Source: a virus
Taxonomy: Duplodnaviria; Heunggongvirae; Uroviricota; Caudoviricetes
IMG/VR virus record: IMGVR_UViG_2526164597_000016
Length of the DNA: 34,328 nucleotides
Strand: one strand, 5' to 3'
The notes beneath the pieces are model-generated. The model was not told where the DNA came from, did not search any database, and saw nothing but the letters and a program-made list of their open reading frames with translations. Below are positions 1-27,777 of the stretch, in pieces. Made by a program: the position numbers and the translations under genes. Numbering within the stretch: position 1 is the first letter of the stretch; the number at the start of each line of letters is the position of its first letter.

Positions 1-981
1 TTATAACGTCACTCCGCCTTTTAGAGGATTCAGCGCGACGGCATTTTGCAGGTAGTCAGGCGCAAGGTGCGCATAGGCCATCGTCTGCTGAATGCTCGCA
101 TGTCCCAGAATCTGTTGCAGTGCGATTATATTGCCCCCATTCATCATGAAATGGCTTGCGAATGTATGCCGCAGGATGTGGGTTGCCTGATTGGGTGGTA
201 TATCTGGCTTCACTCTGCGTAAAATCCCGCAAAACTTCTCATAATCAACTTTGAATAATTTAGCGCTGGCCTCCTCTTTAACTTTTTTCTCCAGTTCCTC
301 AGAAATCGGCACGGTTCGCTTTTTACCGTTTTTGGTTTTCAGGAAGGTAACCCTGCAATTTGTAATCTGTGCTGGTTTTAGCGTGGCAACTTCCGTCCAT
401 CTTCCTCCAGTGCTCAGACATAAAAGTGCGACAAGTAAGTCATCACCATCCAGAACATTTAACAGTTTTTCGATTTCTGCTTTTTCCAGGAACGTCATTT
501 CAGGGTTGGCCTCCGCCAGTGGCGGCAGTCCGTGAATTGGGTGTTGCCCGGAAAATTCATCCAATTGAATTAATTTTGTGAACATGCCGGATAATCGGTA
601 CATGTCACGGTTTATCGTTGCGGCACTGATACCATCACGTAGTCGCATGGAACGATAATCCATCAAAGCTCTTTTGCTCATCCGGCTCACTGGTATATCA
701 CCTATGCCGCTGATGGTTTTGAGCAGATGATTAAACTCTTTTGTTCCATGCTCGTGGTTTTGCCCGTGATATTTCCACCAGATGTCCAGCAACTCACTCA
801 AAGTTCTGCGATCTGCTCGCTGACCTGCCCATTCTTTCTGGCTGGCGTAGGCGATTGTGTATCGCTCAAATGCTACAGCCTCAGCTTTTCTTTCAAATTT
901 CCTGCGGATGCGTTTTCCGTCGCGACCGCGAGGTCTAATGTCCACTTCATAGCGTCCATCATCGAGCTTCTTAATTGACAT
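1..981 (-). CDS. int: Tyrosine integrase (P2 Int-like); start taken at internal ATG 979-981 preceded by GAGGG; alternative start at 1011
   Basis: Translation contains the tyrosine recombinase motifs HILRHTF (HxxR) and AYAHLAP (catalytic Tyr); N-terminus MSIKKLDDGRYEVDIRP resembles P2 Int; stop codon at 1-3. Confidence 0.85.
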   Translation of the reverse strand: MSIKKLDDGRYEVDIRPRGRDGKRIRRKFERKAEAVAFERYTIAYASQKEWAGQRADRRTLSELLDIWWKYHGQNHEHGTKEFNHLLKTISGIGDIPVSRMSKRALMDYRSMRLRDGISAATINRDMYRLSGMFTKLIQLDEFSGQHPIHGLPPLAEANPEMTFLEKAEIEKLLNVLDGDDLLVALLCLSTGGRWTEVATLKPAQITNCRVTFLKTKNGKKRTVPISEELEKKVKEEASAKLFKVDYEKFCGILRRVKPDIPPNQATHILRHTFASHFMMNGGNIIALQQILGHASIQQTMAYAHLAPDYLQNAVALNPLKGGVTL

Positions 982-1050
982 AAGAAAGCCCTCTGACGCT
1001 GTATTCACCATCTTGGTAACAAATGGTGAAAATGTAATGTTTATAGAGTG

Positions 1051-3253: not shown

Positions 3254-3525
3254 GTATTCGTATTGAAATTGGCGAACGTTATGTCGTTACCAGTGACAGC
3301 TTTCAGTTTATTCTCCACGAGAAAAAGAGAGCGGAAAGCGGTAAAAACGCCGGTCAGGAATGGCTGTCGGTGGTTGGTTATTACCCGAAATTAAGCCAGC
3401 TCGTTTCCGGCCTGATGCATCACGATATTCTGACCGGAAGCGCAAAGTCTTTTGCTGATTTAAACGCGCAGGTTGAGCAACTCAGCAAGCGTTGTTCAGA
3501 GGCTTTTGGCTCATATGGCCGTTAA
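3250..3525 (+). CDS. Early hypothetical protein (P2 orf83 position)
   Basis: 91-aa ORF; ATGA overlap with the previous gene. Confidence 0.5.
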   Translation: MSIRIEIGERYVVTSDSFQFILHEKKRAESGKNAGQEWLSVVGYYPKLSQLVSGLMHHDILTGSAKSFADLNAQVEQLSKRCSEAFGSYGR

Positions 3526-5785
3526 AGCCTCCGGGCGTTTTGTCCCTCCGTCAGCATTTGCCGCAGGCACCGGTAAGACGACCGGTGCTTATGCATGGAA
3601 CGCGCCACGCGAGGCCGTCGGGCGCGAAAGACCCCTTACACGTGACGAGATGCGTCAGGTGCAAGGTGTTTTATCCACGATTAACCGCCTGCCTTACTTT
3701 TTGCGCTCGCTGTTTACTTCACGCTATGACTACATCCGGCGCAATAAAAGCCCGGTGCACGGGTTTTATTTCCTCACATCCACTTTTCAGCGTCGTTTAT
3801 GGCCGCGCATTGAGCGTGTGAATCAGCGCCATGAAATGAACACCGACACGTCGTTGCTGTTTCTGGCAGAGCGTGACCACTATGCGCGCCTGCCGGGAAT
3901 GAATGACAAGGAGCTGAAAAAGTTTGCCGCCCGTATCTCATCGCAGCTTTTCATGATGTATGAGGAACTCAGCGATGCCTGGGTGGATGCGCATGGCGAA
4001 AAAGAATCACTGTTTACGGATGAGGCTCAGGCTCACCTGTATGGTCATGTTGCTGGCGCTGCACGAGCTTTCAATATTTCCCCTCTCTACTGGAAAAAAT
4101 ACCGTAAAGGACAGATGACCACGAGGCAGGCATATTCTGCCATTGCCCGTCTGTTTAACGATGAGTGGTGGACTCATCAGCTTAAAGGCCAGCGTATGCG
4201 CTGGCATGAAGCGTTACTGATAGCTGTCGGGGAGGTCAATAAAGACCGTTCTCCTTATGCCAGTAAACACGCCATTCGTGATGTGCGTGCGCGCCGCCAG
4301 GCAAATCTGGAATTTCTTAAATCGTGTGATCTCGAAAACAGGGAAACCGGCGAGCGCATCGACCTTATCAGTAAGGTGATGGGCAGTATTTCTAATCCTG
4401 AAATTCGCCGGATGGAGCTGATGAACACCATTGCTGGTATTGAGCGTTACGCCGCAGCAGAGGGTGATGTGGGGATGTTTATCACGCTCACCGCGCCGTC
4501 AAAGTATCACCCGACACGTCAGGTTGGAAAAGGCGAAAGTAAAACCGTCCAGCTAAATCACGGCTGGAACGATGAGGCATTTAATCCAAAGGATGCGCAG
4601 CGTTATCTCTGCCGCATCTGGAGCCTGATGCGCACGGCATTCAAGGATAATGATTTACAGGTCTACGGTTTGCGTGTCGTCGAGCCACACCACGACGGAA
4701 CGCCGCACTGGCATATGATGCTTTTTTGTAATCCACGCCAGCGTAACCAGATTATCGAAATCATGCGTCGCTATGCGCTCAAAGAGGATGGTGACGAAAG
4801 AGGAGCCGCGCGAAACCGTTTTCAGGCAAAGCACCTTAACCGGGGCGGTGCTGCGGGATATATCGCGAAATACATTTCAAAAAACATCGACGGCTATGCA
4901 CTGGATGGTCAGCTCGATAACGATACCGGCAGGCCGCTGAAAGACACTGCCGCGGCTGTTACCGCATGGGCGTCAACGTGGCGCATTCCGCAATTTAAAA
5001 CGGTTGGCCTGCCGACAATGGGGGCTTACCGTGAACTACGCAAATTGCCTCGCGGCGTCAGCATTGCTGATGAGTTTGACGAACGCGTCGAGGCTGCACG
5101 CGCTGCCGCAGACAGTGGCGATTTTGCGCTGTATATCAGCGCGCAGGGTGGGGCAAATGTCCCGCGCGATTGTCAGACTGTCAGGGTCGCCCGTAGCCCG
5201 TCGGATGACGTTAACGAGTACGAGGAAGAGGTCGAGAGAGTGGTCGGCATTTACGCGCCGCATCTCGGCGCGCGTCATATTCATATCACCAGAACGACGG
5301 ACTGGCGCATTGTGCCGAAAGTTCCGGTCGTTCAGCCTTTGACTTTAAAAAGCGGCATCGCCGCGCCTCGGAGTCCTGTCAATAACTGTGGAAAACTCAC
5401 CGGTGGTGATACTTCGTTACCGGCTCCCACACCTTCTGAGCACGCCGCAGCAGTGCTTAATCTGGTTGATGACGGTGTTATCGAATGGAGTGACCCGGAG
5501 GTCGTGAGGGCGCTCAGAGGTGCATTAAAACACGGTCGGAGAACGCCAAGTCGTCAGCAAAGAAACGGAAGCCCGTTAAAACCACATGAAATTGCACCAT
5601 CGGCCAGACTGACCCGGTCGGAAAGAATGCAAATTACCCGTATCCGCGTTGACCTTGCTCAGAACGGTATCAGGCCGCAGCGATGGGAGCTTGAGGCGCT
5701 GGCGCGTGGCGCGACCGTAAATTATGATGGGAAAACGTTTTCATATCCGATTTCTGATGGTTGGGCGGGATTTGAAACAAACTAA
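3515..5785 (+). CDS. A: Rolling-circle replication initiator / endonuclease (P2 gpA-like); start taken at ATG 3515 (the ORF opens at TTG 3473)
   Basis: About 756 aa; N-terminus MAVKASGRFVPPSAFAAGTGK recognised as P2 gpA-like; position after B and the small ORFs. Confidence 0.85.
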   Translation: MAVKASGRFVPPSAFAAGTGKTTGAYAWNAPREAVGRERPLTRDEMRQVQGVLSTINRLPYFLRSLFTSRYDYIRRNKSPVHGFYFLTSTFQRRLWPRIERVNQRHEMNTDTSLLFLAERDHYARLPGMNDKELKKFAARISSQLFMMYEELSDAWVDAHGEKESLFTDEAQAHLYGHVAGAARAFNISPLYWKKYRKGQMTTRQAYSAIARLFNDEWWTHQLKGQRMRWHEALLIAVGEVNKDRSPYASKHAIRDVRARRQANLEFLKSCDLENRETGERIDLISKVMGSISNPEIRRMELMNTIAGIERYAAAEGDVGMFITLTAPSKYHPTRQVGKGESKTVQLNHGWNDEAFNPKDAQRYLCRIWSLMRTAFKDNDLQVYGLRVVEPHHDGTPHWHMMLFCNPRQRNQIIEIMRRYALKEDGDERGAARNRFQAKHLNRGGAAGYIAKYISKNIDGYALDGQLDNDTGRPLKDTAAAVTAWASTWRIPQFKTVGLPTMGAYRELRKLPRGVSIADEFDERVEAARAAADSGDFALYISAQGGANVPRDCQTVRVARSPSDDVNEYEEEVERVVGIYAPHLGARHIHITRTTDWRIVPKVPVVQPLTLKSGIAAPRSPVNNCGKLTGGDTSLPAPTPSEHAAAVLNLVDDGVIEWSDPEVVRALRGALKHGRRTPSRQQRNGSPLKPHEIAPSARLTRSERMQITRIRVDLAQNGIRPQRWELEALARGATVNYDGKTFSYPISDGWAGFETN

Positions 5786-5896
5786 CAATAATGATTGACA
5801 TGCTTGATTTTGTATTCACAAATCAAGCATCAAGTAAACATCGATGATGAGAAAGAACAATGCTACAATCCCCACAGCATTAGAAGGAGGTTTATC
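5786..5896 (+). promoter_or_regulatory. Promoter/operator region of the methyltransferase gene
   Basis: Perfect inverted repeat TGCTTGATTT 5801-5810 / AAATCAAGCA 5820-5829 (9-bp spacer) next to TTGACA 5795-5800; extended -10-like TGcTACAAT at 5861-5869; AGGAGG 5885-5890 six nt before the TTG start. Confidence 0.5.
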
Positions 5897-6946
5897 TTGA
5901 TTAAGGTTGTTGATTTATTCTGTGGCGCGGGTGGCTTGACTCACGGTCTTCAGAAGTCGGGGCTTAATGTAGTTGCAGGTTATGATATAGATGCAGCCTG
6001 TCGATTTGCCTATGAGACAAATAATAAATCACTCTTTGTCCAGAAAAGTGTTACAGACATTGAGGACGGCGAATTAGTTAAATATTTCGAAGGAGCGAAG
6101 GTTCGAGTTTTGGCTGGTTGTGCCCCATGCCAACCTTTTTCAAGCTATACCAATAGTGCTAAATTAGGGGTAGTACGTTCAAAAGATAAAAGATGGTCTT
6201 TGCTTTATAGCTTTGCTAAGCAAATTAAATTTGCAAAGCCAGATATTATTACAATGGAAAACGTTCCCCGAGTGGTGAATCATAAGGTTTTTAAGGACTT
6301 CATTAAGTCTCTTAAAAATGATGGCTATTTTGTTTGGTATGGGGTGGTGTTTTGTCCAGACTATGGAATGGCACAAAGTCGTTCAAGATTAGTGTTATTG
6401 GCATCAAAATATGGAGAAATAGAAATAATTCCACCAACTCATGAGAAGAATGATTATAAAACGGTGCGAGATATAATCGGTAATCTTCCTGAAATTAGTG
6501 CCGGTGCTGTTCACGCTGGAGATAAACTACATCGCTCTGCATCATTATCTGATATTAATATAAAAAGAATAATGGCATCAAAACCTGGTGGAACATGGCG
6601 TGATTGGCCAGAAGAGCTAAGAGCAAAATGTCATACAAAAGAAAGTGGTTCTACATATACTGCTGTATATGGGAGAATGTGTTGGGATAAACTTGGACCG
6701 ACAATTACAACTCAATGTATTGGATATGGGAATGGACGCTTTGGGCACCCTGTCCAAAATAGAGCATTAAGTTTAAGAGAGGCTGCGCTATTACAGTCAT
6801 TCCCAGAAAAGTATGAGTTTTGGCCTGATGATGTAAAAATTGAAATGAGAACAGTTGCGCGTTTAATAGGTAATGCTGTTCCTGTTAGGCTTGGTGAGGT
6901 CGTAGGTGAAACTATTTTAAAACATTTGTCAGAAATGAATATTTAA
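5897..6946 (+). CDS. DNA (cytosine-5)-methyltransferase (Dcm-like), probable TTG start
   Basis: Motif I DLFCGAGG, motif IV PCQPFS (catalytic Cys), motif VI ENV, motif VIII QSRSR, motif X GNAV; the ORF-track N-terminal extension from 5795 translates the promoter/palindrome and is probably not coding. Confidence 0.85.
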   Translation: MIKVVDLFCGAGGLTHGLQKSGLNVVAGYDIDAACRFAYETNNKSLFVQKSVTDIEDGELVKYFEGAKVRVLAGCAPCQPFSSYTNSAKLGVVRSKDKRWSLLYSFAKQIKFAKPDIITMENVPRVVNHKVFKDFIKSLKNDGYFVWYGVVFCPDYGMAQSRSRLVLLASKYGEIEIIPPTHEKNDYKTVRDIIGNLPEISAGAVHAGDKLHRSASLSDINIKRIMASKPGGTWRDWPEELRAKCHTKESGSTYTAVYGRMCWDKLGPTITTQCIGYGNGRFGHPVQNRALSLREAALLQSFPEKYEFWPDDVKIEMRTVARLIGNAVPVRLGEVVGETILKHLSEMNI

Positions 6947-6958
6947 AACTTATGTCAT

Positions 6959-6980
6959 CCCCCTGTCAAAAAACAGGGGG
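6959..6980. terminator. Hairpin between convergent genes, probable bidirectional terminator
   Basis: CCCCCTG (6959-6965), loop TCAAAAAA, CAGGGGG (6974-6980), lying between the methyltransferase stop (6946) and the ATPase stop (6987). Confidence 0.5.
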
Positions 6981-6986
6981 GTATAA

Positions 6987-8945
6987 TTAGATTCCCTCAA
7001 CTATTTTCATAATTCTAGCTGCATCATTCTTTTTGTCTTGATATTCAGCATAGGCTTGTTTTGATTGCACGATTAGGTCATTATATGTCAATATTTTTCC
7101 ATTGATAGAAAGTAATTGCATATTTATAAAGTGTTGGTTCTCTTGTAAATATCCAGAGCCAACCAGGAATATTACTTCTATATGCGGTATATTTCCACCT
7201 GGGCAATTTTTAGGGTTATTGGAGAACCATTGTGTCGTTGCCTGTACATATTTATTACCTTGTGCGACTAGGTTCATTATATCTGGGTGCACTTTAGGTC
7301 GTTTCATCTCAATAATTACATGCTTGCCAGAAACGGTTTTGAAAGCGATATCAATACGAGCACCGCTAGCAGCATCAGGGTTTATCTGTTTTAGTTCCTT
7401 GGTCAATGTTTGCTCCATAACAGATGTGCCTGTGACTCTTTCCCATGAAGGATCCAATAACCATAAATGATCATATAAATACATTTGTACAGCTCTTTCA
7501 AGCTGATTTTCATCAGTTATTTTTTGGAATTTTTCAATTACTTTAAGGCGTTGCGAAGTAATTTCATAAAACATGCTTGCTTCAATGTCATTGACAGATG
7601 CAAATACATCTTTAAAATTTTCTGATTGAAGGTTGCTTATTTTATCTAATGCATCAAGGTTGTCTTGAATTCTAAGTCTTTCAAAGGCTAATACCGTATT
7701 TTTTAATACGGTTTTTCTTGCTGCTTTTTGTTCTTCCTCATTACCAGAAAAACGGAATGTGTTTACTCGTCCAATTAACTTTTCGGCACTTTCTCTCTCA
7801 TGTTTTTTGAGAGAATTCAGCCATTCACTTACTATTGGAGTATTGCTTTTAACTTCATTTACTCCTTTTTCGCGTCTCCATTTATCCCAATCTTTATCGA
7901 TTAGTTGTAGCGTTCTTTCCAGAAAACCTTTAAGTACAGGGTATCTTGGATCATTCTGTTGTAGTTTTTGACGAGAAGATGTTGCCATATCAGGCTTTTC
8001 GTTATCATCTAGAAAATCGGCGACTATTTCACCGACCAGATAATTGGTGAATACTTTAGCACTTCCAAATTCTAATAATATGTCCTCCTCAAAAACACGT
8101 CCGTGAGAGATTACAGTAATGCTGTTGTTAGATATTTCAGGGTCTTTCTTTAACTGTGATGGCTTAACTACACTGCCAATGTACCCACTAACTTTTACAT
8201 CTTTTCCTTCAAAGGTAATAGTATTTGGTAATATGTTTTTTTGTGTGATGTTTGTGCAGGATTTTATCCTTTCAGGGTCGGATTCGCCAAATTCCCAAAT
8301 GAACTCGAGATCTGAAAGGAAATCTCTATCTGCCGGTGTAATATCGGTCCCATTAATTTTAACTGTAAAGTTATGGTTGGGGCCAATAATGCTAAATCGA
8401 CGAGCTATTCGCTTTCTGAGGTAAGTTTGAGTCCTATCAATGGCTTTTTTTAGTTCAAATAATTTAATTGTAGTGCCGTAAGCAAGATTTTCGGGTATTT
8501 CAAGGGAGTCAGCAATATAGTTTTTTGATTCTTTGATACTTTGCTGTAAATCTTTGACATCTACCTCAAAGGCCTGAGGCTGTTCCCCCTTTTTGTACGA
8601 ATAAACTTGGATTTTATTGGCAAGTGAAAACATGGCAAGCTTACCAATACCTTTTCTGCCCATAACTTGACGTTTTAGATGATCGCTTTTGGCTCTTCCA
8701 TGTTCCCTGCGAGCATAACCGACTTTTAGGAACTTATTAATAATGTCATCTTTAGACATGCCATGACCATCATCTTTAATGATGACCTCTCCTTTCTCAA
8801 CATCAAGTGTAATTTCTACATTTTGAGCATCTGCATCCCATGCATTTGATATAATCTCAGTTAGTACCGCGGGAGTATTGGAATAGAGACTCATCCCTAG
8901 GTGATTTAGCACATTCAAATCAATTTTAATTTCGAAATCTGACAT
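6987..8945 (-). CDS. GHKL (Bergerat-fold, MORC/MutL-like) ATPase with C-terminal PD-(D/E)xK-like nuclease motif; candidate defence or restriction effector
   Basis: N-terminal ATPase motifs EIISNAWDA (N box), DDGHGM (G1), GRKGIGKLA (G2); C-terminal RIDIAF ... HVIIEMKRP fits a D ... E-x-K nuclease signature; AAGGA precedes the ATG; gene is AT-rich by inspection. Confidence 0.7.
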   Translation of the reverse strand: MSDFEIKIDLNVLNHLGMSLYSNTPAVLTEIISNAWDADAQNVEITLDVEKGEVIIKDDGHGMSKDDIINKFLKVGYARREHGRAKSDHLKRQVMGRKGIGKLAMFSLANKIQVYSYKKGEQPQAFEVDVKDLQQSIKESKNYIADSLEIPENLAYGTTIKLFELKKAIDRTQTYLRKRIARRFSIIGPNHNFTVKINGTDITPADRDFLSDLEFIWEFGESDPERIKSCTNITQKNILPNTITFEGKDVKVSGYIGSVVKPSQLKKDPEISNNSITVISHGRVFEEDILLEFGSAKVFTNYLVGEIVADFLDDNEKPDMATSSRQKLQQNDPRYPVLKGFLERTLQLIDKDWDKWRREKGVNEVKSNTPIVSEWLNSLKKHERESAEKLIGRVNTFRFSGNEEEQKAARKTVLKNTVLAFERLRIQDNLDALDKISNLQSENFKDVFASVNDIEASMFYEITSQRLKVIEKFQKITDENQLERAVQMYLYDHLWLLDPSWERVTGTSVMEQTLTKELKQINPDAASGARIDIAFKTVSGKHVIIEMKRPKVHPDIMNLVAQGNKYVQATTQWFSNNPKNCPGGNIPHIEVIFLVGSGYLQENQHFINMQLLSINGKILTYNDLIVQSKQAYAEYQDKKNDAARIMKIVEGI

Positions 8946-9130
8946 ATAGTCGTTCCTTGCTGAGAGTTCATTTTAGTTTCATGCAATCAATAGGTTAGGC
9001 TGAAGATAAAACCTTAAGATAACCAAAGCAAGTGTTCATTAGCGGCTTTGTTTCATGACATGATGTGTGTCGCTTTTTGCATGAAACTGCATTTGTTTCT
9101 TATATCTGCTCTTTTTACATACTGCTAGTG

Positions 9131-9152
9131 TTGACATGGCTTTGACATGGCT
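9131..9152. repeat. Perfect tandem 11-bp direct repeat TTGACATGGCT x2 just upstream of cos
   Basis: Read directly: 9131-9141 and 9142-9152 are identical. Confidence 0.8.
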
Positions 9153-9188
9153 GTGCAACCGCATTAAAACCGCCCCATGAAGCGGGCG

Positions 9189-9207
9189 GGCGAGGCGGGG
9201 AAAGCAC
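9189..9207. other. cos: cos site: 19-nt cohesive-end sequence GGCGAGGCGGGGAAAGCAC
   Basis: Exact match to the P2 cohesive-end 19-mer as I recall it, located just beyond the end of the portal gene as in P2. Confidence 0.7.
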
Positions 9208-9345
9208 TGCGCGCTGGCGGTGGTGCTGATTTTATTTTTTCAGCGTCTCAGCGCGTCGTAATGGCGCTTAGTCTGCCCGTTGAGGCGTTGGTGTGTCTGC
9301 GGGGTGTTTTGTGCGGTGGTGAGCGTGTGAGGGCGTGATGACGGG

Positions 9346-9371
9346 GTGTAAAAAAGCCGCCCGCAGGCGGC
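9346..9371 (-). terminator. Rho-independent terminator of the P-Q operon
   Basis: On the minus strand directly after the Q stop: GCCGCC-TGCG-GGCGGC hairpin followed by a T-run (plus-strand A-run 9346-9355). Confidence 0.65.
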
Positions 9372-9376
9372 GATGT

Positions 9377-10411
9377 TCAACCGTTGTCAGTGTCCAGTGA
9401 GTAGTTTTTAAAGCGGATGACCTCCTGACCGAGCCAGCCGTTTATTTCCCGAATTCTGTCCTGTAACGGGATAAGCTCATTGCGGACAAAGACCTTTGCC
9501 ACTTTCTCAATATCTCCCAGTGACCCGACGTTCTCCGGCTTGCCGCCCATCAACTGAAAGGGGATACGGTGCGCGTCCAGCAGGTCAGCGGCGCTGGCTT
9601 TTTTGATATTAAAAAAATCGTCCTTCGTTGCCACTTCACTGAGCGGGATAATTTTAATGCCGTCGGCTTTCCCCTGTGGGGCATAGAGAAACAGATTTTT
9701 AAAGTTATTGCGGCCTTTCGACTTCACCATGTTTTCGCGAAGCATTTCGATATCGTTGCGGTCCTGCACGGCATCGGTGACGTACATGATGTATCCGGCA
9801 TGTGCGCCGTTTTCGTAATACTTGCGGCGGAACAGCGTGGCCGACTCATTCAGCCAGGCAGAGTTAAGGGCGCTGAGATATTCCGGCAGGCCGTACAGCT
9901 CCTGATTAATATCCGGCTCCAGCAGGTGAAACACGGAGCCGGGCGCGAAGGCTGTCGGCTCGTTGAAGGACGGCACCCACCAGTAAACATCCTCCTCCAC
10001 GCCACGGCGGGTATATTTTGCCGGTGAGGTTTCCAGTCTGATGACCTTACCGGTGGTGCTGTAACGCTTTTCCAGAAACGCATTACCGAACACCAGAAAA
10101 TCCAGCACAAAGCGGCTGAAATCCTGCTGGGAAAGCCACGGATGCGGGATAAATGTCGAGGCCAGAATATTGCGTTTGACGTAAATCGGCGAGCTGTGAT
10201 GCACGGCAGCACGCAGGCTTTTCGCCAGACCGGTAAAGCTGACCGGCGGCTCATACCATCTGCCGTTACTGATGCACTCGACGTAATCCAGAATGTCACG
10301 GCGGTCGAGTACCGGCACCGGCTCACCAAAGGTGAATGCCTCCATTTTCGGGGCGCTGGCGGTGATTGTTTTTGCCGCAGGTCGCGGTGTTTTCCCTTTT
10401 TTCTTACTCAT
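9377..10411 (-). CDS. Q: Portal protein (P2 gpQ)
   Basis: 344 aa, same length as P2 gpQ; start overlaps the P stop (ATGA); adjacent to cos. Confidence 0.9.
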   Translation of the reverse strand: MSKKKGKTPRPAAKTITASAPKMEAFTFGEPVPVLDRRDILDYVECISNGRWYEPPVSFTGLAKSLRAAVHHSSPIYVKRNILASTFIPHPWLSQQDFSRFVLDFLVFGNAFLEKRYSTTGKVIRLETSPAKYTRRGVEEDVYWWVPSFNEPTAFAPGSVFHLLEPDINQELYGLPEYLSALNSAWLNESATLFRRKYYENGAHAGYIMYVTDAVQDRNDIEMLRENMVKSKGRNNFKNLFLYAPQGKADGIKIIPLSEVATKDDFFNIKKASAADLLDAHRIPFQLMGGKPENVGSLGDIEKVAKVFVRNELIPLQDRIREINGWLGQEVIRFKNYSLDTDNG

Positions 10412-12183
10412 CAGTAAAACTCCAGAATGGTGGATGTCAGCGGAGTGCTGATACCGGCGGTGAGTGGCTCATTTAACAGGGCGTGCATGGTCGCCCAGGC
10501 GAGGTCGGCGTGGCTGGCTTCCTCGCTGCGGCTGGCCTCATAGGTGGCGCTGCGTCCGCTGCTGGTCATGGTCTTGCGGATAGCCATGAACGAGCTGGTG
10601 ATGTCGGTGGCGCTGACGTCATATTCCAGACAGCCACGGCGGATAACGTCTTTTGCCTTGAGCACCATTGCAGTTTTCATTTCCGGCGTGTAGCGGATAT
10701 CGCGCGCGGCGGGATAGAACGAGCGCACGAGCTGGAACACGCCGACACCGAGGCCGGTGGCATCAATACCGATGTATTCGACGTTATATTTTTCGGTGAG
10801 TTTGCGGATGGATTCCGCCTGGGTGGCAAAGTCCATGCCTTTCCACTGGTGACGCTCAAGTATTCTGAATTTGCCACCGGCCACCACCGGCGGTGCCAGC
10901 ACCACGCATCCGGCGCTGTCGCCACGGTGTGACGGGTCGTAACCAATCCATACCGGACGTGAGCCGAACGGATTGGCGGCAAACGGAGCATAGTCTTCCC
11001 ATTCTTCCAGCGTGTCGACCATGCAGCGTTGCAGCTCCTCGAACGGGAACACCGACGCCTTGTCGTCAACAAATTCACACATGAACAGGTTTTTAAAATC
11101 GTCGGCGCTGTTTTCACGTTTGAGTTGCTCAATGTCGAACAGCGTGCAGCCGCCTTTCAGGGCGTCCTCAATGGTGACAATCTGCCGCCACTGGCCGTCC
11201 GCACAGAGAAGCCCACCGGCAAGGGCGTTATGACTGACGTCGATTTCCACGCGTTCGGCGGCGCTGGCGCGTCCCCGGTTAAACAGTTCACCCGACCAGA
11301 ACGGGTAGGCGTCGTGCGCCAGCGTGGACGGGGTGGAGAAATAGGTCGAGCGCAGGTGACTCTGTGAGGCCATACCTGATGCCACCTTACGCAGTACCTG
11401 AAAATTCGGGATCCAGAAAATCTCGTCGACGTACAGGTCGCCGTTATGGCTCTGCGCGGTGTTGGAGTTGGTGCCGAGAAAAATCAGTTTTGCGCCGTTA
11501 TTGCCCAGGACAATCGGGTCACCGGTCAGGTCAACGTCAACCAGACGGGCAAAGGCGATGATGTATTCGCGGAACACATACGCCTGCGTTTTACTGGCCG
11601 ACAGAAAAATCTGGTTATGGCCGGTTTTCAGGGCGCGCAGCAGCGCCTCGCGGGAAAAATAAAACGTCGCGCCAATCTGGCGGGATTTCAGGATATCGCG
11701 GATGCGGTGCTCAAGCCCGGCGCGATACCAGTGCAACTGATAGTCGAAAGACTGCTCAAAGAAAATCTGCTCCAGCTTTTCGATGGCCTCGTCACTGAAA
11801 AAATTCTTTTTCGGTTTGCGACGCCCGCCTTTGTTGCGGTTAGCGACGTTCGGATTAAGGTCTGCCTCGTTGCCGGTCTGACTGTAGCGGTTTACCCGTG
11901 CCAGTCGTTCAATCTGGCGTCCCAGCAGGTCAATTTCCTTGAAGTCACCGCCGGTTTTCTGCGGTTTGATGATGAGCTGGGTCAGCCGCGCTTCCAGACT
12001 CATTTCGACACGGCTGATGGGGGCAACGCTGTCCCAGCCGTCGCGCTGTTTCCAGCTCTGCACCGTCGGGCGTTTCATCTGCAACATGGCGGCAATCTGC
12101 GGCACGGAAAACCCCTGCCAGTACAGCAGCGCCGCCTGACGACGCGGGTCGTGTAAAAGAGTGGTGTCTGTGGTGATGGTCAT
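10411..12183 (-). CDS. P: Terminase large (ATPase) subunit (P2 gpP); start at ATG 12181-12183 with GAGG six nt upstream
   Basis: 590 aa from the internal ATG, matching P2 gpP; upstream of Q on the same strand. Confidence 0.9.
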   Translation of the reverse strand: MTITTDTTLLHDPRRQAALLYWQGFSVPQIAAMLQMKRPTVQSWKQRDGWDSVAPISRVEMSLEARLTQLIIKPQKTGGDFKEIDLLGRQIERLARVNRYSQTGNEADLNPNVANRNKGGRRKPKKNFFSDEAIEKLEQIFFEQSFDYQLHWYRAGLEHRIRDILKSRQIGATFYFSREALLRALKTGHNQIFLSASKTQAYVFREYIIAFARLVDVDLTGDPIVLGNNGAKLIFLGTNSNTAQSHNGDLYVDEIFWIPNFQVLRKVASGMASQSHLRSTYFSTPSTLAHDAYPFWSGELFNRGRASAAERVEIDVSHNALAGGLLCADGQWRQIVTIEDALKGGCTLFDIEQLKRENSADDFKNLFMCEFVDDKASVFPFEELQRCMVDTLEEWEDYAPFAANPFGSRPVWIGYDPSHRGDSAGCVVLAPPVVAGGKFRILERHQWKGMDFATQAESIRKLTEKYNVEYIGIDATGLGVGVFQLVRSFYPAARDIRYTPEMKTAMVLKAKDVIRRGCLEYDVSATDITSSFMAIRKTMTSSGRSATYEASRSEEASHADLAWATMHALLNEPLTAGISTPLTSTILEFY

Positions 12184-18628: not shown

Positions 18629-19414
18629 TTATGAGTGATTTTTATTTGATGCTTTGTATTCTAAAACCTTCTTATTGGCGTAAAAGAATTTTGTATATGA
18701 CAGGAATATAACCAGACCTGAAGTGAAATAGACGAGGGATAGTATTAATAATGCTTTTTTGTGACTGTTATTATCTTTAATCTCCTGGCTTAACCATTCG
18801 GAGTCCTCCTCGTTTAGCTGTAAGAGCTTATTGCAGGCGATTTCAGGAAGTGTGTCTTTTATAAATACGTTTTGCAGTCTCTTGCAATCGGCAAGGCTAT
18901 AAGTTTTATTAAATTCAACTGCTTTATTTTTGAAGGATAAAAGAACTTTGTCACTATAAACATAGTACATCATATTTTTATATGGTATGCCTATGGCATC
19001 TCTTACTATAGCGGATTGTTTGTTGTGTATATAACATGCGAAGAGAATATAAATAATACTGGCCAGAATTACAATTATTGTTTTAATTATGTGTGGTGGT
19101 TTTGTTATGTCACCCCAGATGCGAGCAAGGAAAAAATACGATGTTTTTAGTTTTCCATCAATCAGTCCCTGCTGTATCATTCTCACATTTTCAATGCCTG
19201 ATACATTGATTCCGTTAATTATTTTAAATAGTTGAATGTCGCGCCACTCGCGGTCAAGTCTTTTTAATTTTTTGTCTGAATATCCAAAATTGAAATAATG
19301 TGCAATAAGCCTCATAAGGTTACTTTTACCAAAGCTAAAAAATGCTAATACTGCAAAGCTACAAAGGAAAAAAACGATTAGCCCCCACACATTAGTCACA
19401 TTATAGCTGACCAT
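18629..19414 (-). CDS. Accessory (moron) membrane protein of unknown function, about 3 TM helices (P2 orf30 position)
   Basis: 261 aa, AT-rich and on the opposite strand to the flanking tail genes; strong AAGGAG before the ATG; hydrophobic segments VWGLIVFFLCSFAVLAFFSF, IIKTIIVILASIIYILFACYI, ALLILSLVYFTSGLVIFLSY. Confidence 0.6.
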   Translation of the reverse strand: MVSYNVTNVWGLIVFFLCSFAVLAFFSFGKSNLMRLIAHYFNFGYSDKKLKRLDREWRDIQLFKIINGINVSGIENVRMIQQGLIDGKLKTSYFFLARIWGDITKPPHIIKTIIVILASIIYILFACYIHNKQSAIVRDAIGIPYKNMMYYVYSDKVLLSFKNKAVEFNKTYSLADCKRLQNVFIKDTLPEIACNKLLQLNEEDSEWLSQEIKDNNSHKKALLILSLVYFTSGLVIFLSYTKFFYANKKVLEYKASNKNHS

Positions 19415-19497
19415 TACGCTCTCCTTGAATGTTGTCTGGTAGTTCTACAAATGAATCCAGATAGCATAACTTTTATATATTGTGCAATCTCACATGC
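19415..19497. promoter_or_regulatory. Candidate late promoter for the V operon and promoter of the divergent cargo gene
   Basis: TATATA at 19474-19479 upstream of V; partial Ogr-like dyad TGT-N11-ACA at 19433-19449, which is not the canonical N12 spacing. Confidence 0.3.
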
Positions 19498-20133
19498 ATG
19501 AACACTCTCGCAAATATTCAGGAACTCGCGCGCGCACTGCGCAACATGATTCGCACCGGCCTTGTCGTCGAAACCGACCTTAACGCCGGTCGCTGCCGTG
19601 TGCAGACCGGCGGCATGTGCACCGACTGGCTTCAGTGGCTGACCTGTCGTGCCGGGCGTTCGCGCACATGGTGGGCACCTTCCGTGGGAGAGCAGGTGCT
19701 GATTCTGGCCGTGGGCGGTGAACTTGACACGGCGTTTGTTCTGCCGGGGATTTATTCCGGCGATAACCCCGCGCCGTCTGCGTCGGCGGATGCCCTGCAT
19801 ATCCGTTTCCCTGACGGGGCGGTGATTGAGTATGAACCCGAAACCAGTGCACTCACGGTAAGCGGAATTAAAACGGCCAGCGTGACGGCTTCTGATTCTG
19901 TTACTGCCACGGTGCCGGTGGTCATGGTGAAAGCGTCAACCCGCATCACCCTGGACACACCGGAGGTGGTCTGCACCAACAGGCTGATTACCGGCACGCT
20001 GGAAGTGCAGAAGGGCGGGACGATGCGCGGCAACATTGAACACACCGGCGGTGAACTCTCATCAAACGGTAAGGTACTGCATACCCATAAACACCCCGGC
20101 GACAGCGGCGGCACAACCGGGAGTCCTCTATGA
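19498..20133 (+). CDS. V: Baseplate spike / assembly protein V (P2 gpV)
   Basis: 211 aa from ATG 19498 (MNTLANIQELARAL...), matching P2 gpV. Confidence 0.85.
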   Translation: MNTLANIQELARALRNMIRTGLVVETDLNAGRCRVQTGGMCTDWLQWLTCRAGRSRTWWAPSVGEQVLILAVGGELDTAFVLPGIYSGDNPAPSASADALHIRFPDGAVIEYEPETSALTVSGIKTASVTASDSVTATVPVVMVKASTRITLDTPEVVCTNRLITGTLEVQKGGTMRGNIEHTGGELSSNGKVLHTHKHPGDSGGTTGSPL

Positions 20134-24176: not shown

Positions 24177-24704
24177 ATGCAGCATTTAAAAAATATTACG
24201 GCGGGTAATCCAAAAACGGTTGAACAATATCAATTGACAAAGAACTTTGATGTTGTCTGGTTTTTTTCAGAAGATGGTAAGAACTGGTACGAAGAACAAA
24301 AGTATTTTGCTGATGACACGATAAAAATAGCGTACGACAAAGATAATATCATCCGCTATGTGGAAAAGGATGTGACAGCTATCAGACCGGATGGATTAAG
24401 TGTTGTTGAAGTGGCGGATATTACTGCTAACCGACGGGCGGACATTTCAGGGAACTGGATGTTTAAGGATGGCACAGTGATCAAACGAATTTATACGGCA
24501 GAGGAATTGCAACTGCAGGCAGAAAACCGGAAAGCCAGACTTCTTGCAGATGCTGAATCCGTGATTTTGCCGCTAGAGCGTGCTGTCAGGCTGAACATGG
24601 CAACAGAGGAGGAGCGCACACGGCTGGAGGCTTGGGAACGCTACAGCGTTGTGGTCAGTCGTGTGGATCCTGCAAATCCTGAATGGCCGGAAATGCCGCA
24701 ATAA
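24177..24704 (+). CDS. G: Tail fibre assembly chaperone G
   Basis: 175 aa, same as P2 gpG; immediately downstream of H. Confidence 0.8.
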
Positions 24705-24985: not shown

Positions 24986-25921
24986 ATGGCTACTTATGCT
25001 TCTTATTTACCAGAATCACAAATTATCACTTTGTGCAAGGATTTCCCAGCGTTTACTGATCCTGAAAAATTAGATGGATTCATTAATCCAGAACAGTTTG
25101 GCGTGTTTTTTCATGAGTGGATTCATTTTCTTCACAATATTTCCACAATTAATGGGTTTTCTATTTTTTGCACGCAAAACATCCTGTGGTCTAATTTTCG
25201 CTGGGCAATGGACAATCAGGATGTATGTCTTGGTTCAAATGACATGGATCCAGCACATATCGAATCAAACAAAAATTTTCTCAGTTACATTCGTTCCAAT
25301 AGGAGTCTGCATAAATGTAACTTACCTTATTATGTAAAAGTAAACGACTTGTATTTTGAGGATGCAATAATCCATGACATGGAGGTTGCTGACGGTAGTG
25401 TTATATGTACATCATTAATAAAGTGTAGAATTTCTCATTCTGAAAACAAATACGATCTAGATTTAGGCGTGCTTGAAATACTTGAATCCGCAGCTTTTAT
25501 GCTTGAATGTAAGTGTATTAATGCGATGAATGGCTTCCCTCAAGAGGCACCCTTTTATCCGTATCATACTATCAAGGGCTTAGCAGCGAAAATTGCTCCG
25601 TCATTAAATGATGAAGATATTATTTGTTGTATGTTAGCTTCTTTGCAATCTAATAACCCTCCCCAAGTATTATTCAATCTACTACATAAATGTGAATTAT
25701 TACATTCTGATTGTAGGTATGAACATCTAGTGGCGGAGGTGAAAAAACAATTAAGCGAACAAGATCAAATAATAAGCGAGTCACTTAATCAAATAATTCA
25801 AATGATTCCTGTTGATGAACCGATGGGAAACTTTATCAAGCTTACTCTTAACAGAATAAGTAACAATTTGAACTATAGAAAGCAAAAACCGTTTTTTGAG
25901 TTAGATATAATAAAAAAATAG
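24986..25921 (+). CDS. Accessory protein with HExxH motif (possible zinc metallopeptidase-like), in the P2 Z/fun position
   Basis: 311 aa; AT-rich; GAGGA six nt before the ATG; motif FFHEWIHFLHN contains H-E-x-x-H. Confidence 0.6.
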   Translation: MATYASYLPESQIITLCKDFPAFTDPEKLDGFINPEQFGVFFHEWIHFLHNISTINGFSIFCTQNILWSNFRWAMDNQDVCLGSNDMDPAHIESNKNFLSYIRSNRSLHKCNLPYYVKVNDLYFEDAIIHDMEVADGSVICTSLIKCRISHSENKYDLDLGVLEILESAAFMLECKCINAMNGFPQEAPFYPYHTIKGLAAKIAPSLNDEDIICCMLASLQSNNPPQVLFNLLHKCELLHSDCRYEHLVAEVKKQLSEQDQIISESLNQIIQMIPVDEPMGNFIKLTLNRISNNLNYRKQKPFFELDIIKK

Positions 25922-25938: not shown

Positions 25939-26328
25939 ATGAATGAAGTAATACAGAAATTCGGTGGTTGCACTATCATCCAGGTAAGACATGGAGATGA
26001 TAATGAACCACAGCGTGATATTATGTATGACTTTTGCTTACCTGAAAATAATGATTCAATTTTATTTGGTTCGAAAATGCTACGCGCTTGTTTTCACTTT
26101 ATATTTATTCACTTTAAACTTTCTGGTGAAATCATGAAGACAGAAGAATTAAATATTTCGCCGCGTAATAAATGCCCATTTTATACTGTTTGCTGTGCAT
26201 CAATTCGAGCTAATAATAGTAATATCTGCGCTGAATCCCCTTGGAAATCAATGTCTATTGATGACAACAAAGGTTGTTATTATGCAGCAGCGATTAAAGC
26301 TACTAACCCACCAGTTTTGCCGGATTAA
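25939..26328 (+). CDS. Small Cys-rich accessory protein, co-oriented 17 bp downstream of the HExxH gene
   Basis: 129 aa with eight Cys (GGCTII, DFCLPE, RACFHF, CPFYTVCCA, NICAES, KGCYY); AT-rich; weak ribosome-binding site. Confidence 0.5.
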   Translation: MNEVIQKFGGCTIIQVRHGDDNEPQRDIMYDFCLPENNDSILFGSKMLRACFHFIFIHFKLSGEIMKTEELNISPRNKCPFYTVCCASIRANNSNICAESPWKSMSIDDNKGCYYAAAIKATNPPVLPD

Positions 26329-26586: not shown

Positions 26587-27777
26587 ATGAGTGACTATCA
26601 TCACGGCGTGCAGGTGCTGGAGATTAACGACGGCACACGCGTCATTTCCACCGTATCCACTGCCATTGTCGGCATGGTCTGCACGGCCAGCGATGCGGAT
26701 GCGGAAACCTTCCCCCTCAATAAACCTGTGCTGATTACCAATGTGCAGAGTGCAATTGCAAAGGCCGGTAAAAAAGGCACGCTGGCGGCATCGTTGCAGG
26801 CCATCGCTGACCAGTCAAAACCGGTCACCGTTGTCGTGCGCGTGGAAGACGGCACCGGTGATGACGAGGAAACGAAACTCGCGCAGACCGTTTCTAATAT
26901 TATCGGCACCACTGACGAAAACGGTCAGTACACCGGACTGAAAGCCCTGCTGGCGGCGGAGTCGGTAACCGGTGTTAAACCGCGTATTCTTGGTGTGCCG
27001 GGGCTGGATACCAAAGAGGTGGCTGTTGCACTGGCATCAGTCTGTCAGAAGCTGCGCGCTTTCGGATATATCAGCGCATGGGGCTGTAAGACCATTTCCG
27101 AGGTGAAAGCCTACCGCCAGAATTTCAGCCAGCGTGAGCTGATGGTCATCTGGCCGGATTTCCTCGCATGGGATACGGTCACCAGTACCACCGCCACCGC
27201 GCATGCCACCGCCCGTGCGCTGGGTCTGCGCGCTAAAATCGACCAGGAGCAGGGCTGGCATAAAACGCTGTCCAACGTTGGGGTAAACGGTGTTACCGGC
27301 ATCAGCGCATCTGTATTCTGGGATTTGCAGGAGTCCGGCACCGATGCTGACCTGCTTAACGAGTCAGGCGTCACTACGCTGATTCGCCGTGACGGTTTCC
27401 GCTTCTGGGGTAACCGTACCTGCTCTGATGACCCGCTGTTCCTCTTTGAAAACTACACCCGCACCGCGCAGGTGCTGGCCGACACGATGGCTGAGGCGCA
27501 CATGTGGGCGGTGGACAAGCCCATCACCGCAACGCTGATTCGCGACATCGTTGACGGCATCAATGCCAAATTCCGTGAGCTGAAAACAAACGGCTATATC
27601 GTGGATGCGACCTGCTGGTTCAGCGAAGAATCCAACGATGCGGAAACCCTCAAGGCCGGAAAACTGTATATCGACTACGACTATACCCCGGTGCCTCCTC
27701 TCGAAAACCTGACCCTGCGCCAGCGTATTACTGATAAATACCTGGCAAGTCTGGTCACCTCGGTTAACAGCAATTAA
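26587..27777 (+). CDS. FI: Tail sheath protein FI
   Basis: 396 aa, same as P2 gpFI. Confidence 0.9.
   Translation: MSDYHHGVQVLEINDGTRVISTVSTAIVGMVCTASDADAETFPLNKPVLITNVQSAIAKAGKKGTLAASLQAIADQSKPVTVVVRVEDGTGDDEETKLAQTVSNIIGTTDENGQYTGLKALLAAESVTGVKPRILGVPGLDTKEVAVALASVCQKLRAFGYISAWGCKTISEVKAYRQNFSQRELMVIWPDFLAWDTVTSTTATAHATARALGLRAKIDQEQGWHKTLSNVGVNGVTGISASVFWDLQESGTDADLLNESGVTTLIRRDGFRFWGNRTCSDDPLFLFENYTRTAQVLADTMAEAHMWAVDKPITATLIRDIVDGINAKFRELKTNGYIVDATCWFSEESNDAETLKAGKLYIDYDYTPVPPLENLTLRQRITDKYLASLVTSVNSN

Follow-up and report, generated by a model that had tools for sequence, protein, structure and literature searches.

The Type II enzyme R.HgiDII carries an N-terminal GHKL domain, and in the survey of Orlowski and Bujnicki (2008) its C-terminal domain was left 'unassigned to any known fold'. 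The paraMORC3 proteins, reported in the same year (Iyer, Abhiman and Aravind, 2008; PMC2292703), consist of a GHKL ATPase followed by an S5 domain and, at the C-terminus, a restriction-endonuclease fold bearing an E-D-ExK signature; roles in restriction-modification (R-M) were proposed for them. More recently, Gu et al (bioRxiv 2023.08.10.552793; Mol Cell 2025) classed DUF4263 proteins bearing HATPase_c_3 as Shedu type I-D and counted 602 Shedu genes within R-M loci. One type I-D protein, VcSduA of V. cholerae, defends directly and non-abortively, and substitution of either its ATPase site (E27A) or its nuclease site (K557A) abolishes defence (Adams et al, Nat Microbiol 2025; PMC12137116). With regard to genomic location, the cos-proximal gpA-gpQ region of P2-like phages is a hotspot of swappable anti-phage systems, represented in P2 itself by old and tin (Rousset et al, 2022; PMC9122126).

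We analysed a stretch of 34,328 nucleotides, referred to as the window, that constitutes a P2-like E. coli prophage with an integrase gene (positions 1-1011, minus strand) and genes for gpA, gpQ, the terminase gpP, capsid, lysis and tail. Two convergent genes, here called R and M, lie between the replication endonuclease gpA on the left (3473-5785, plus strand; Pfam Phage_GPA, E 7e-124; PGAP 'replication endonuclease') and the gene annotated as portal protein gpQ on the right (9377-10411, minus strand; Pfam Phage_portal). The right border of this cargo slot, as read from the sequence, is GGCGAGGCGGGGAAAGCAC at 9189-9207, which we take to be the P2-type cos cohesive-end sequence. The R/M island has a GC content of 35-38%, against 52-60% in its flanks. 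Among 5426 complete E. coli genomes, 2155 contained the flanks of the 3.7-kb query and 30 the whole cargo; near-identical phages carried divergent alleles (L043, L046 and L085). The island is thus what hotspot cargo should look like: an insert of variable content and foreign composition, lying between gpA and cos/gpQ. MORC, GHKL and Dcm go unmentioned in Rousset et al (2022) and in a 2026 preprint on the P2/P4 hotspots. The other low-GC cargo ORFs gave nothing with PADLOC, Pfam or NCBIfam, and a promoter scan of 5600-9500 returned 9 sites where 10.5 were expected, hence no usable signal.

The R gene occupies 6987-8945 and encodes a protein of 652 amino acids from an ATG start; it lies on the minus strand, which the initial annotation had not given, with its stop codon at 6987-6989. 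That annotation had also implied that the fusion of a GHKL ATPase to a nuclease was new. This did not hold. The R protein matched the curated NCBIfam equivalog NF050001, 'BbrUII/HgiDII family restriction enzyme', at 751.4 bits (cutoff 550) over its full length (aa 4-651 on model positions 1-658 of 659), and PADLOC called it REase_II (E 2.3e-91), with a match to MzaB also returned. An identical protein in RefSeq E. coli genomes already bears the BbrUII/HgiDII family name from PGAP, and a further identical copy is found in Escherichia phage PhiR44_1 (PV340563.1; host E. coli C), whose depositors labelled the R/M pair 'ParaMORC3' and 'Dcm protein'. The family has at least 575 representatives at the 50% identity level (E<=1e-30), nearly all of them full-length. 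By profile, R is therefore a member of the BbrUII/HgiDII restriction-enzyme family. The fusion is accordingly not an unrecognised one: the family is named and annotated in RefSeq, and its architecture is that of paraMORC3 and Shedu type I-D. The domains had been read correctly, and what they make up is a known enzyme, located at a phage defence hotspot that is itself documented.

All of the motifs on which that reading was based are present, far above chance: EIISNAWDA at aa 30-38, DDGHGM at 58-63, GRKGIGKLA at 96-104, RIDIAF at 530-535 and IIEMKRP at 544-550. The GHKL ATPase domain comprises aa 1-190 (8376-8945, minus strand) and includes motif I (E30/N34/D37), motif II (D58-G62), motif III (G96-K102) and motif IV (G157-T158). 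Pfam HATPase_c_3 matched aa 26-149 (E 2.3e-25). Sixty-one homologues sharing 32-68% identity were aligned; E30, N34, D37, D58, G60, G62, G96-K102 and G157 were invariant among them, and T158 was kept in 59. An AlphaFold2 model built from the same alignment was confident (mean pLDDT 85.2, pTM 0.72; 80-95 over the ATPase domain). Profile match, invariant motifs and predicted structure thus agree on an N-terminal Bergerat-fold ATPase. The more specific label, 'MORC/MutL-type', stood only as far as the GHKL fold itself. With the whole chain as query, the best solved structures in Foldseek were the N and middle domains of the Hsp90 family (TRAP1, Hsc82 and GRP94; E about 1e-14), in alignments of 400-470 columns that extended through the Hsp90 middle domain. 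At the sequence level, HtpG and MutL were weak matches, and with regard to MORC sensu stricto R gave the generic HATPase_c_3 match only; Pfam found no zinc-finger domain in the protein. ATPase and middle domain are therefore structurally closest to Hsp90/TRAP1, and not to MORC or MutL in particular.

The ATPase is followed by an alpha/beta, transducer-like middle domain (aa 191-333; 7947-8375, minus strand), delimited from the AlphaFold2 secondary structure and pLDDT. Its R325 (7971-7973) was invariant among the 61 homologues and may act as the sensor of the ATP gamma-phosphate. Next comes a predicted helical linker or arm (aa 334-490; 7476-7946, minus strand) of six helices (334-368, 370-378, 381-396, 403-433, 442-474 and 479-490), four of them long (31-35 residues), with pLDDT of 75-93. 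The middle of the protein had been described as coiled-coil-like. Its helicity is upheld by these roughly 150 residues of long helices in the model, which do not specifically indicate a coiled coil as such. Together with the periphery of the nuclease, the arm is the least conserved part of the protein, with a mean identity to the query of 0.31.

The C-terminal domain (aa 491-652; 6990-7475, minus strand) contains the residues expected of a PD-(D/E)xK nuclease, namely E511 (7413-7415), D532 (7350-7352), E546 (7308-7310), K548 (7302-7304), Q562 (7260-7262) and Y566 (7248-7250). D532 and E546 have 13 residues between them, as originally stated. Conservation among the 61 homologues was high (E511 and Q562 in 59, D532 in 58, E546, K548 and Y566 in 60), and the predicted order of elements, helix (E511)-strand (D532)-strand (E546-x-K548)-helix (Q562)-strand-helix-strand, is that of the PD-(D/E)xK core. 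Pfam gave nothing significant for the C-terminus of the query on its own. Indeed, aa 470-652 scored 17.3 bits against SduA_C (PF14082, DUF4263, the Shedu nuclease), below the gathering score of 27. We therefore took the assignment from homologues, profiles and structure. SduA_C was matched by 16 of 30 C-termini from the family, and a homologue with 68% identity to R passed its gathering score. When the C-terminal alignment was run as a profile against PDB sequences, NucS was the sole match, with an E value of 1.2 that carries no weight by itself. The best 50 whole-chain Foldseek matches all belonged to the Hsp90 family, which masked the nuclease, so that a separate model of the domain was needed; its closest structural neighbour was NucS/EndoMS, a mismatch endonuclease. 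On these models the domain can be placed with confidence in the NucS/Shedu branch of PD-(D/E)xK enzymes, with E511, D532, E546, K548 and Q562 as its predicted catalytic set. The fusion originally proposed thus holds, on family profiles, conserved residues and the predicted structure alike. A missing nuclease fold, unconserved catalytic residues or a missing GHKL fold had been named as grounds for abandoning it; both folds were found, and the residues are conserved.

The adjacent C5-methyltransferase that had been pointed out beside R is real. M (5897-6946, plus strand) encodes a C5 DNA cytosine methyltransferase of 349 amino acids (PF00145, E 1.3e-55; PADLOC MTase_II, E 3e-88). Translation likely starts at the TTG at 5897 and not at the maximal-ORF start at 5795; an AGGAGG lies 8 nt upstream of this codon, and PGAP chose the same start. 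The convergent stop codons of M and R are 40 bp apart. A GC-rich hairpin, CCCCCTGT-CAAAAA-ACAGGGGG, can be read in the gap at 6959-6980, overlapping a terminator-like site reported at 6976-6997, and is likely to be a bidirectional terminator. Neither a controller (HTH, C) protein nor Vsr is encoded in the window.

We then asked how constant this pairing is, in 80 viral or prophage loci with relatives of R at 26-100% identity. A homologue of the window's C5 methylase stood beside the R relative in 79, typically at a spacing of about 50 bp and in either convergent or co-directional orientation. The one exception (L036) has a KAP NTPase and an unannotated protein of 739 amino acids as neighbours. 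The pairing recurs at chromosomal sites of unrelated context, where an HTH controller-like gene sometimes accompanies it, and the identities of R and M drop in parallel across loci. Vsr, which usually goes along with m5C systems, was adjacent as a separate gene in 17 of the 80. So constant a methylase is the signature of ordinary restriction-modification, and this near-obligate linkage supports the earlier suggestion that R works with its neighbour in an R-M-like manner. The target-recognition region of M (TRD, aa 172-288) could be aligned in 77 of the 80 loci and was at least as conserved as the catalytic core, which argues for a largely conserved recognition sequence.

BbrUII is an isoschizomer of SalI. 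Sources disagree on the product of M.BbrUII, given as m5C in some and as m6A in others. M.HgiDII has been characterised experimentally as an m5C methylase of GTCGAC (PMC5867850), and RT(m5C)GAY is among the major m5C motifs of Bifidobacterium breve (PMC5829577). In combination with the conservation of the TRD, these data point to GTCGAC or a near variant. Going by the family name and the TRD, the recognition site is therefore probably GTCGAC or a close variant of it, with the internal C converted to m5C. GTCGAC occurs 4 times in the window, against about 10 expected under a Markov model, and is absent from the island; the counts are uninformative, since the sites are too few and a prophage that methylates itself need not avoid them.

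Family membership, intact ATP and PD-(D/E)xK sites, a nuclease fold and a near-obligate methylase partner are thus established in silico. We consider it very probable that R is the endonuclease of a two-gene BbrUII/HgiDII-family Type II R-M system, which serves the prophage as defence and addiction cargo in the gpA-cos-gpQ hotspot, with M protecting DNA and R cutting it where it is unmethylated. The architecture that R shares with VcSduA raises a different reading, in which it would belong to the Shedu type I-D immune nucleases: a stand-alone enzyme that would sense infection and cut, under the control of its GHKL domain, without strict sequence specificity, beside a methylase that is unrelated or simply co-resident. 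For such a stand-alone system, a C5 methylase that is adjacent in all but one of 80 loci and diverges together with R would be superfluous. Moreover, NF050001 was built on real restriction enzymes, PADLOC gave no match of R to a Shedu model at E up to 0.01, and the score of the query against SduA_C stayed below the gathering score. We regard this reading as improbable. Since the single-gene organisation of VcSduA is lacking here, with M adjacent in the window as in the survey, while every feature of a Type II R-M system that could be checked was found, we favour a Type II R-M enzyme.

Two further readings are concerned with what the nuclease would recognise. The initial annotation had drawn an analogy with MutL/MutH or Vsr, according to which R would belong to a methyl-directed repair or nicking module whose GHKL domain licenses a nick by hemimethylation, thereby repairing damage from m5C deamination. 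It is true that MutL-type GHKL ATPases license PD-(D/E)xK nucleases such as MutH, an analogy also made by Iyer et al, and that the nearest structure to the nuclease domain is a mismatch endonuclease. However, MutL models scored 20-25 bits on R, against cutoffs of 180-937, and the best of them (25.5 bits, cutoff 180) covered aa 26-69 only, so that R is not a MutL. A MutS-like or other mismatch-recognition partner is absent, the location is a phage defence hotspot, and the family is named after restriction enzymes that cut both strands. Where Vsr is present it is a separate third gene, so that the task of repair is already taken. Given these points and the methylase linkage, the analogy is unnecessary, and we think a repair function highly improbable. 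Least probable of all, in our estimate, is a modification-dependent, Type IV-like nuclease directed against foreign methylated or otherwise modified DNA, in which case the neighbouring methylase would have a different, non-target specificity. In its favour, reading of DNA modifications has been suggested for some Shedu and GHKL-associated systems, and Type IV enzymes are also carried in phage hotspots. Nevertheless, near-obligate linkage with one methylase of conserved TRD is the opposite of the Type IV pattern, and Pfam detected no modified-base reader domain (SRA, EVE or PUA) in R. Both the repair analogy and the Type IV reading were thus considered and rejected, on the methylase linkage, the MutL scores, the separate Vsr and the absence of a reader domain.

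If R and M form a Type II system, M would methylate host and prophage DNA at the recognition site, and R would cleave unmethylated incoming DNA through its C-terminal PD-(D/E)xK domain (E511, D532, E546-x-K548 and Q562), methylation blocking recognition of the site. If R follows VcSduA and the GHKL ATPases as a whole, binding of ATP at the N-terminus may cause two protomers to dimerise. The middle domains and helical arms could then close as a clamp on the DNA, which would place two nuclease domains for a double-strand cut at the palindrome. R-M systems can stabilise their carrier through post-segregational killing. The prophage-borne pair should thus shield the lysogen from other phages and, through killing of this kind, also stabilise the prophage.

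The invariance of the ATPase motifs indicates that ATP matters to the R family. Every one of them is kept throughout, arguing that turnover of ATP is important, and this suggests a more specific idea, namely that Type II enzymes of the HgiDII family are ATP-gated GHKL clamps, that is, sequence-specific and methylation-sensitive versions of the Shedu type I-D nucleases. We put this forward tentatively, rating its chances at somewhat under even. HgiDII has been described as a Type II enzyme of the ordinary kind, whose assays normally contain no ATP, which would speak against a strict requirement. If this is right, ATP may be dispensable for cleavage and the clamp model wrong in detail. If the idea is correct, it would define a GHKL-driven, ATP-dependent Type II subtype, and methylase-less immune nucleases such as VcSduA would represent, together with ordinary R-M, two states of one evolving module.

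In the main, our findings confirm existing annotation, of a named R-M family and a documented P2 defence hotspot. They also tie a classical restriction-enzyme family to the paraMORC3/Shedu type I-D architecture, which has recently been validated as defence; we found no statement of this link in the searchable literature. The nuclease fold of the HgiDII family, left open in the 2008 survey, becomes assignable. Because they combine a defined DNA target with a protective methylase, these enzymes should be a convenient system for working out what a GHKL domain does in a fused nuclease, a question that extends to VcSduA and, by extension, to the prokaryotic relatives of MORC.

How, then, does this locus relate to the systems already described? 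Some of them have the slot or only part of the build in common with it. The old and tin exclusion genes of P2 occupy the same cos-proximal position between gpA and gpQ and are likewise low-GC, swappable anti-phage cargo, but their proteins and mechanism are unrelated, OLD being an ABC-ATPase/TOPRIM nuclease. NucS/EndoMS (2vld) resembles R in the nuclease; it has a NucS N-domain in place of the GHKL ATPase and no methylase partner. Canonical Shedu SduA proteins (B. cereus, 8ti8/8ti9; E. coli, 8ps4) similarly lack both GHKL domain and methylase and carry other N-terminal sensors (sPC4/Whirly and others). MutL-MutH and eukaryotic MORC proteins have an ATPase of the HATPase_c_3 type for which DNA-clamping logic has been proposed, and MutL is coupled to a PD-(D/E)xK nuclease, MutH. 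MutL and MutH, however, are separate chains, whereas R unites ATPase and nuclease in one; R also lacks the MutL C-terminal domain, shows no CW or coiled-coil features of MORC, and is structurally nearer to Hsp90/TRAP1.

Others share the whole build. Like VcSduA, which is of similar length, R combines GHKL motifs I-IV with a PD-(D/E)xK domain, probably of the DUF4263 type, and E27 and K557 of VcSduA correspond to E30 and K548. VcSduA nevertheless works as a single gene, which lacks a methylase and which E. coli tolerates by itself, in contrast to the cognate C5 methylase of the R family. P0047, a homologue of the query from V. cholerae, is a protein clearly distinct from VcSduA, as judged from its motif I Glu at about residue 45. 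With paraMORC3, to which we liken it by architecture, R has in common intact GHKL ATP-binding motifs, a middle domain and a C-terminal restriction-endonuclease fold with the E-D-ExK residues; where paraMORC3 has its S5 fold, R has the predicted alpha/beta domain of aa 191-333, which aligns with Hsp90 middle domains. Many of the nuclease-bearing paraMORC3 genes are stand-alone (Iyer et al), whereas those of the R family are almost always linked to a methylase. Finally, R is linked to R.HgiDII and R.BbrUII by its full-length match to NF050001, by the N-terminal GHKL domain noted for R.HgiDII and by a C5 methylase partner of the M.HgiDII type. These enzymes reside in the chromosome of Herpetosiphon or Bifidobacterium, and the present system in a P2-like prophage of E. 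coli; and the C-terminal domain that was without a fold for R.HgiDII in 2008 is, in silico, here a PD-(D/E)xK nuclease of the NucS/Shedu type.

A restriction-modification pair occupies the same slot in three related prophage loci (L043, L046 and L085) whose flanks are nearly identical to those of the window, with 97% identity in gpA, 99-100% in the portal protein and 100% in the terminase. The slot holds the same restriction-modification family in each, whereas the proteins themselves are diverged, the restriction enzyme being 37% or 26% identical and the methyltransferase 56% or 39% identical to those of the window. This is cassette swapping inside one restriction-modification family, and the group with 26-27% identity in the restriction enzyme may differ in specificity from the window system. 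The prophage of E. coli PCN033 (L001) is otherwise near-identical to that of the window, and its restriction-modification pair is intact despite a portal gene (10678-11696) annotated as frameshifted; because of that annotation, this prophage copy may be defective. Among the 80 viral or prophage loci encoding relatives of the restriction enzyme, L036 (5929-7953) is the only one without an adjacent C5 methylase. One neighbour is a KAP-family P-loop NTPase of 709 aa, the other a 739-aa protein that carries no annotation. Within the family, L036 may be a Shedu-like derivative that does without a methylase.

A perfect 8-bp GC-rich hairpin (6959-6980; arms CCCCCTGT/ACAGGGGG, loop CAAAAA) lies exactly in the gap where the stop codons of the convergent methyltransferase and restriction genes face each other. 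It is likely to be a bidirectional terminator, and the two genes may also control each other's transcription at this point. Between the restriction gene and the portal gene is GGCGAGGCGGGGAAAGCAC (9189-9207), which we take to be the P2 cos cohesive end; terminator-like hairpins were found on the minus strand at 9356-9371 and 9170-9189.

A second low-GC patch (34-42% GC) is bounded by the genes for tail-fibre assembly gpG (24177-24704) and sheath gpFI (26587-27777), an interval that is the P2 Z/fun slot. Two plus-strand ORFs here, of 311 aa (24986-25921) and 129 aa (25939-26328), had no match in Pfam, PADLOC or NCBIfam. Both match one and the same PHROG, phrog_15354 (441 aa, function unknown), and the shorter corresponds to phrog_36473. 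Since they cover the front (positions 1-311) and back (319-440) of phrog_15354, the gene is either split or a recurrent two-gene form. The Z/fun slot of Escherichia phage PhiR44_1 (PV340563.1), which carries an identical restriction enzyme, holds other genes. At the P2 orf30 position, flanked by the genes for tail completion (gpS) and baseplate (gpV), a leftward 261-aa ORF (18629-19414, minus strand; phrog_2407, function unknown) is inserted, again with no match in Pfam, PADLOC or NCBIfam; PhiR44_1 has no corresponding insert there. The adjoining 128-aa ORF (19414-19800, minus strand), which overlaps gpV on the opposite strand, is probably spurious.

When 6-bp palindromes were counted over the whole window against a Markov expectation, several GC-rich ones were strongly rarer than expected: GCCGGC (2 observed, 29 expected), GGCGCC (0, 14), CAGCTG (0, 14) and TGGCCA (2, 14). 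GTCGAC was just mildly low (4 observed, 10 expected). The literature on M.BbrUII is conflicting: it is described as an N6-adenine methylase in PMC5829577, whereas PMC5867850 treats it (ABE95799) as a 5mC methylase, aligned with M.HgiDII and bearing the C5 motifs. Of the two assignments, C5 is the one that agrees with the methylase family seen in the window.
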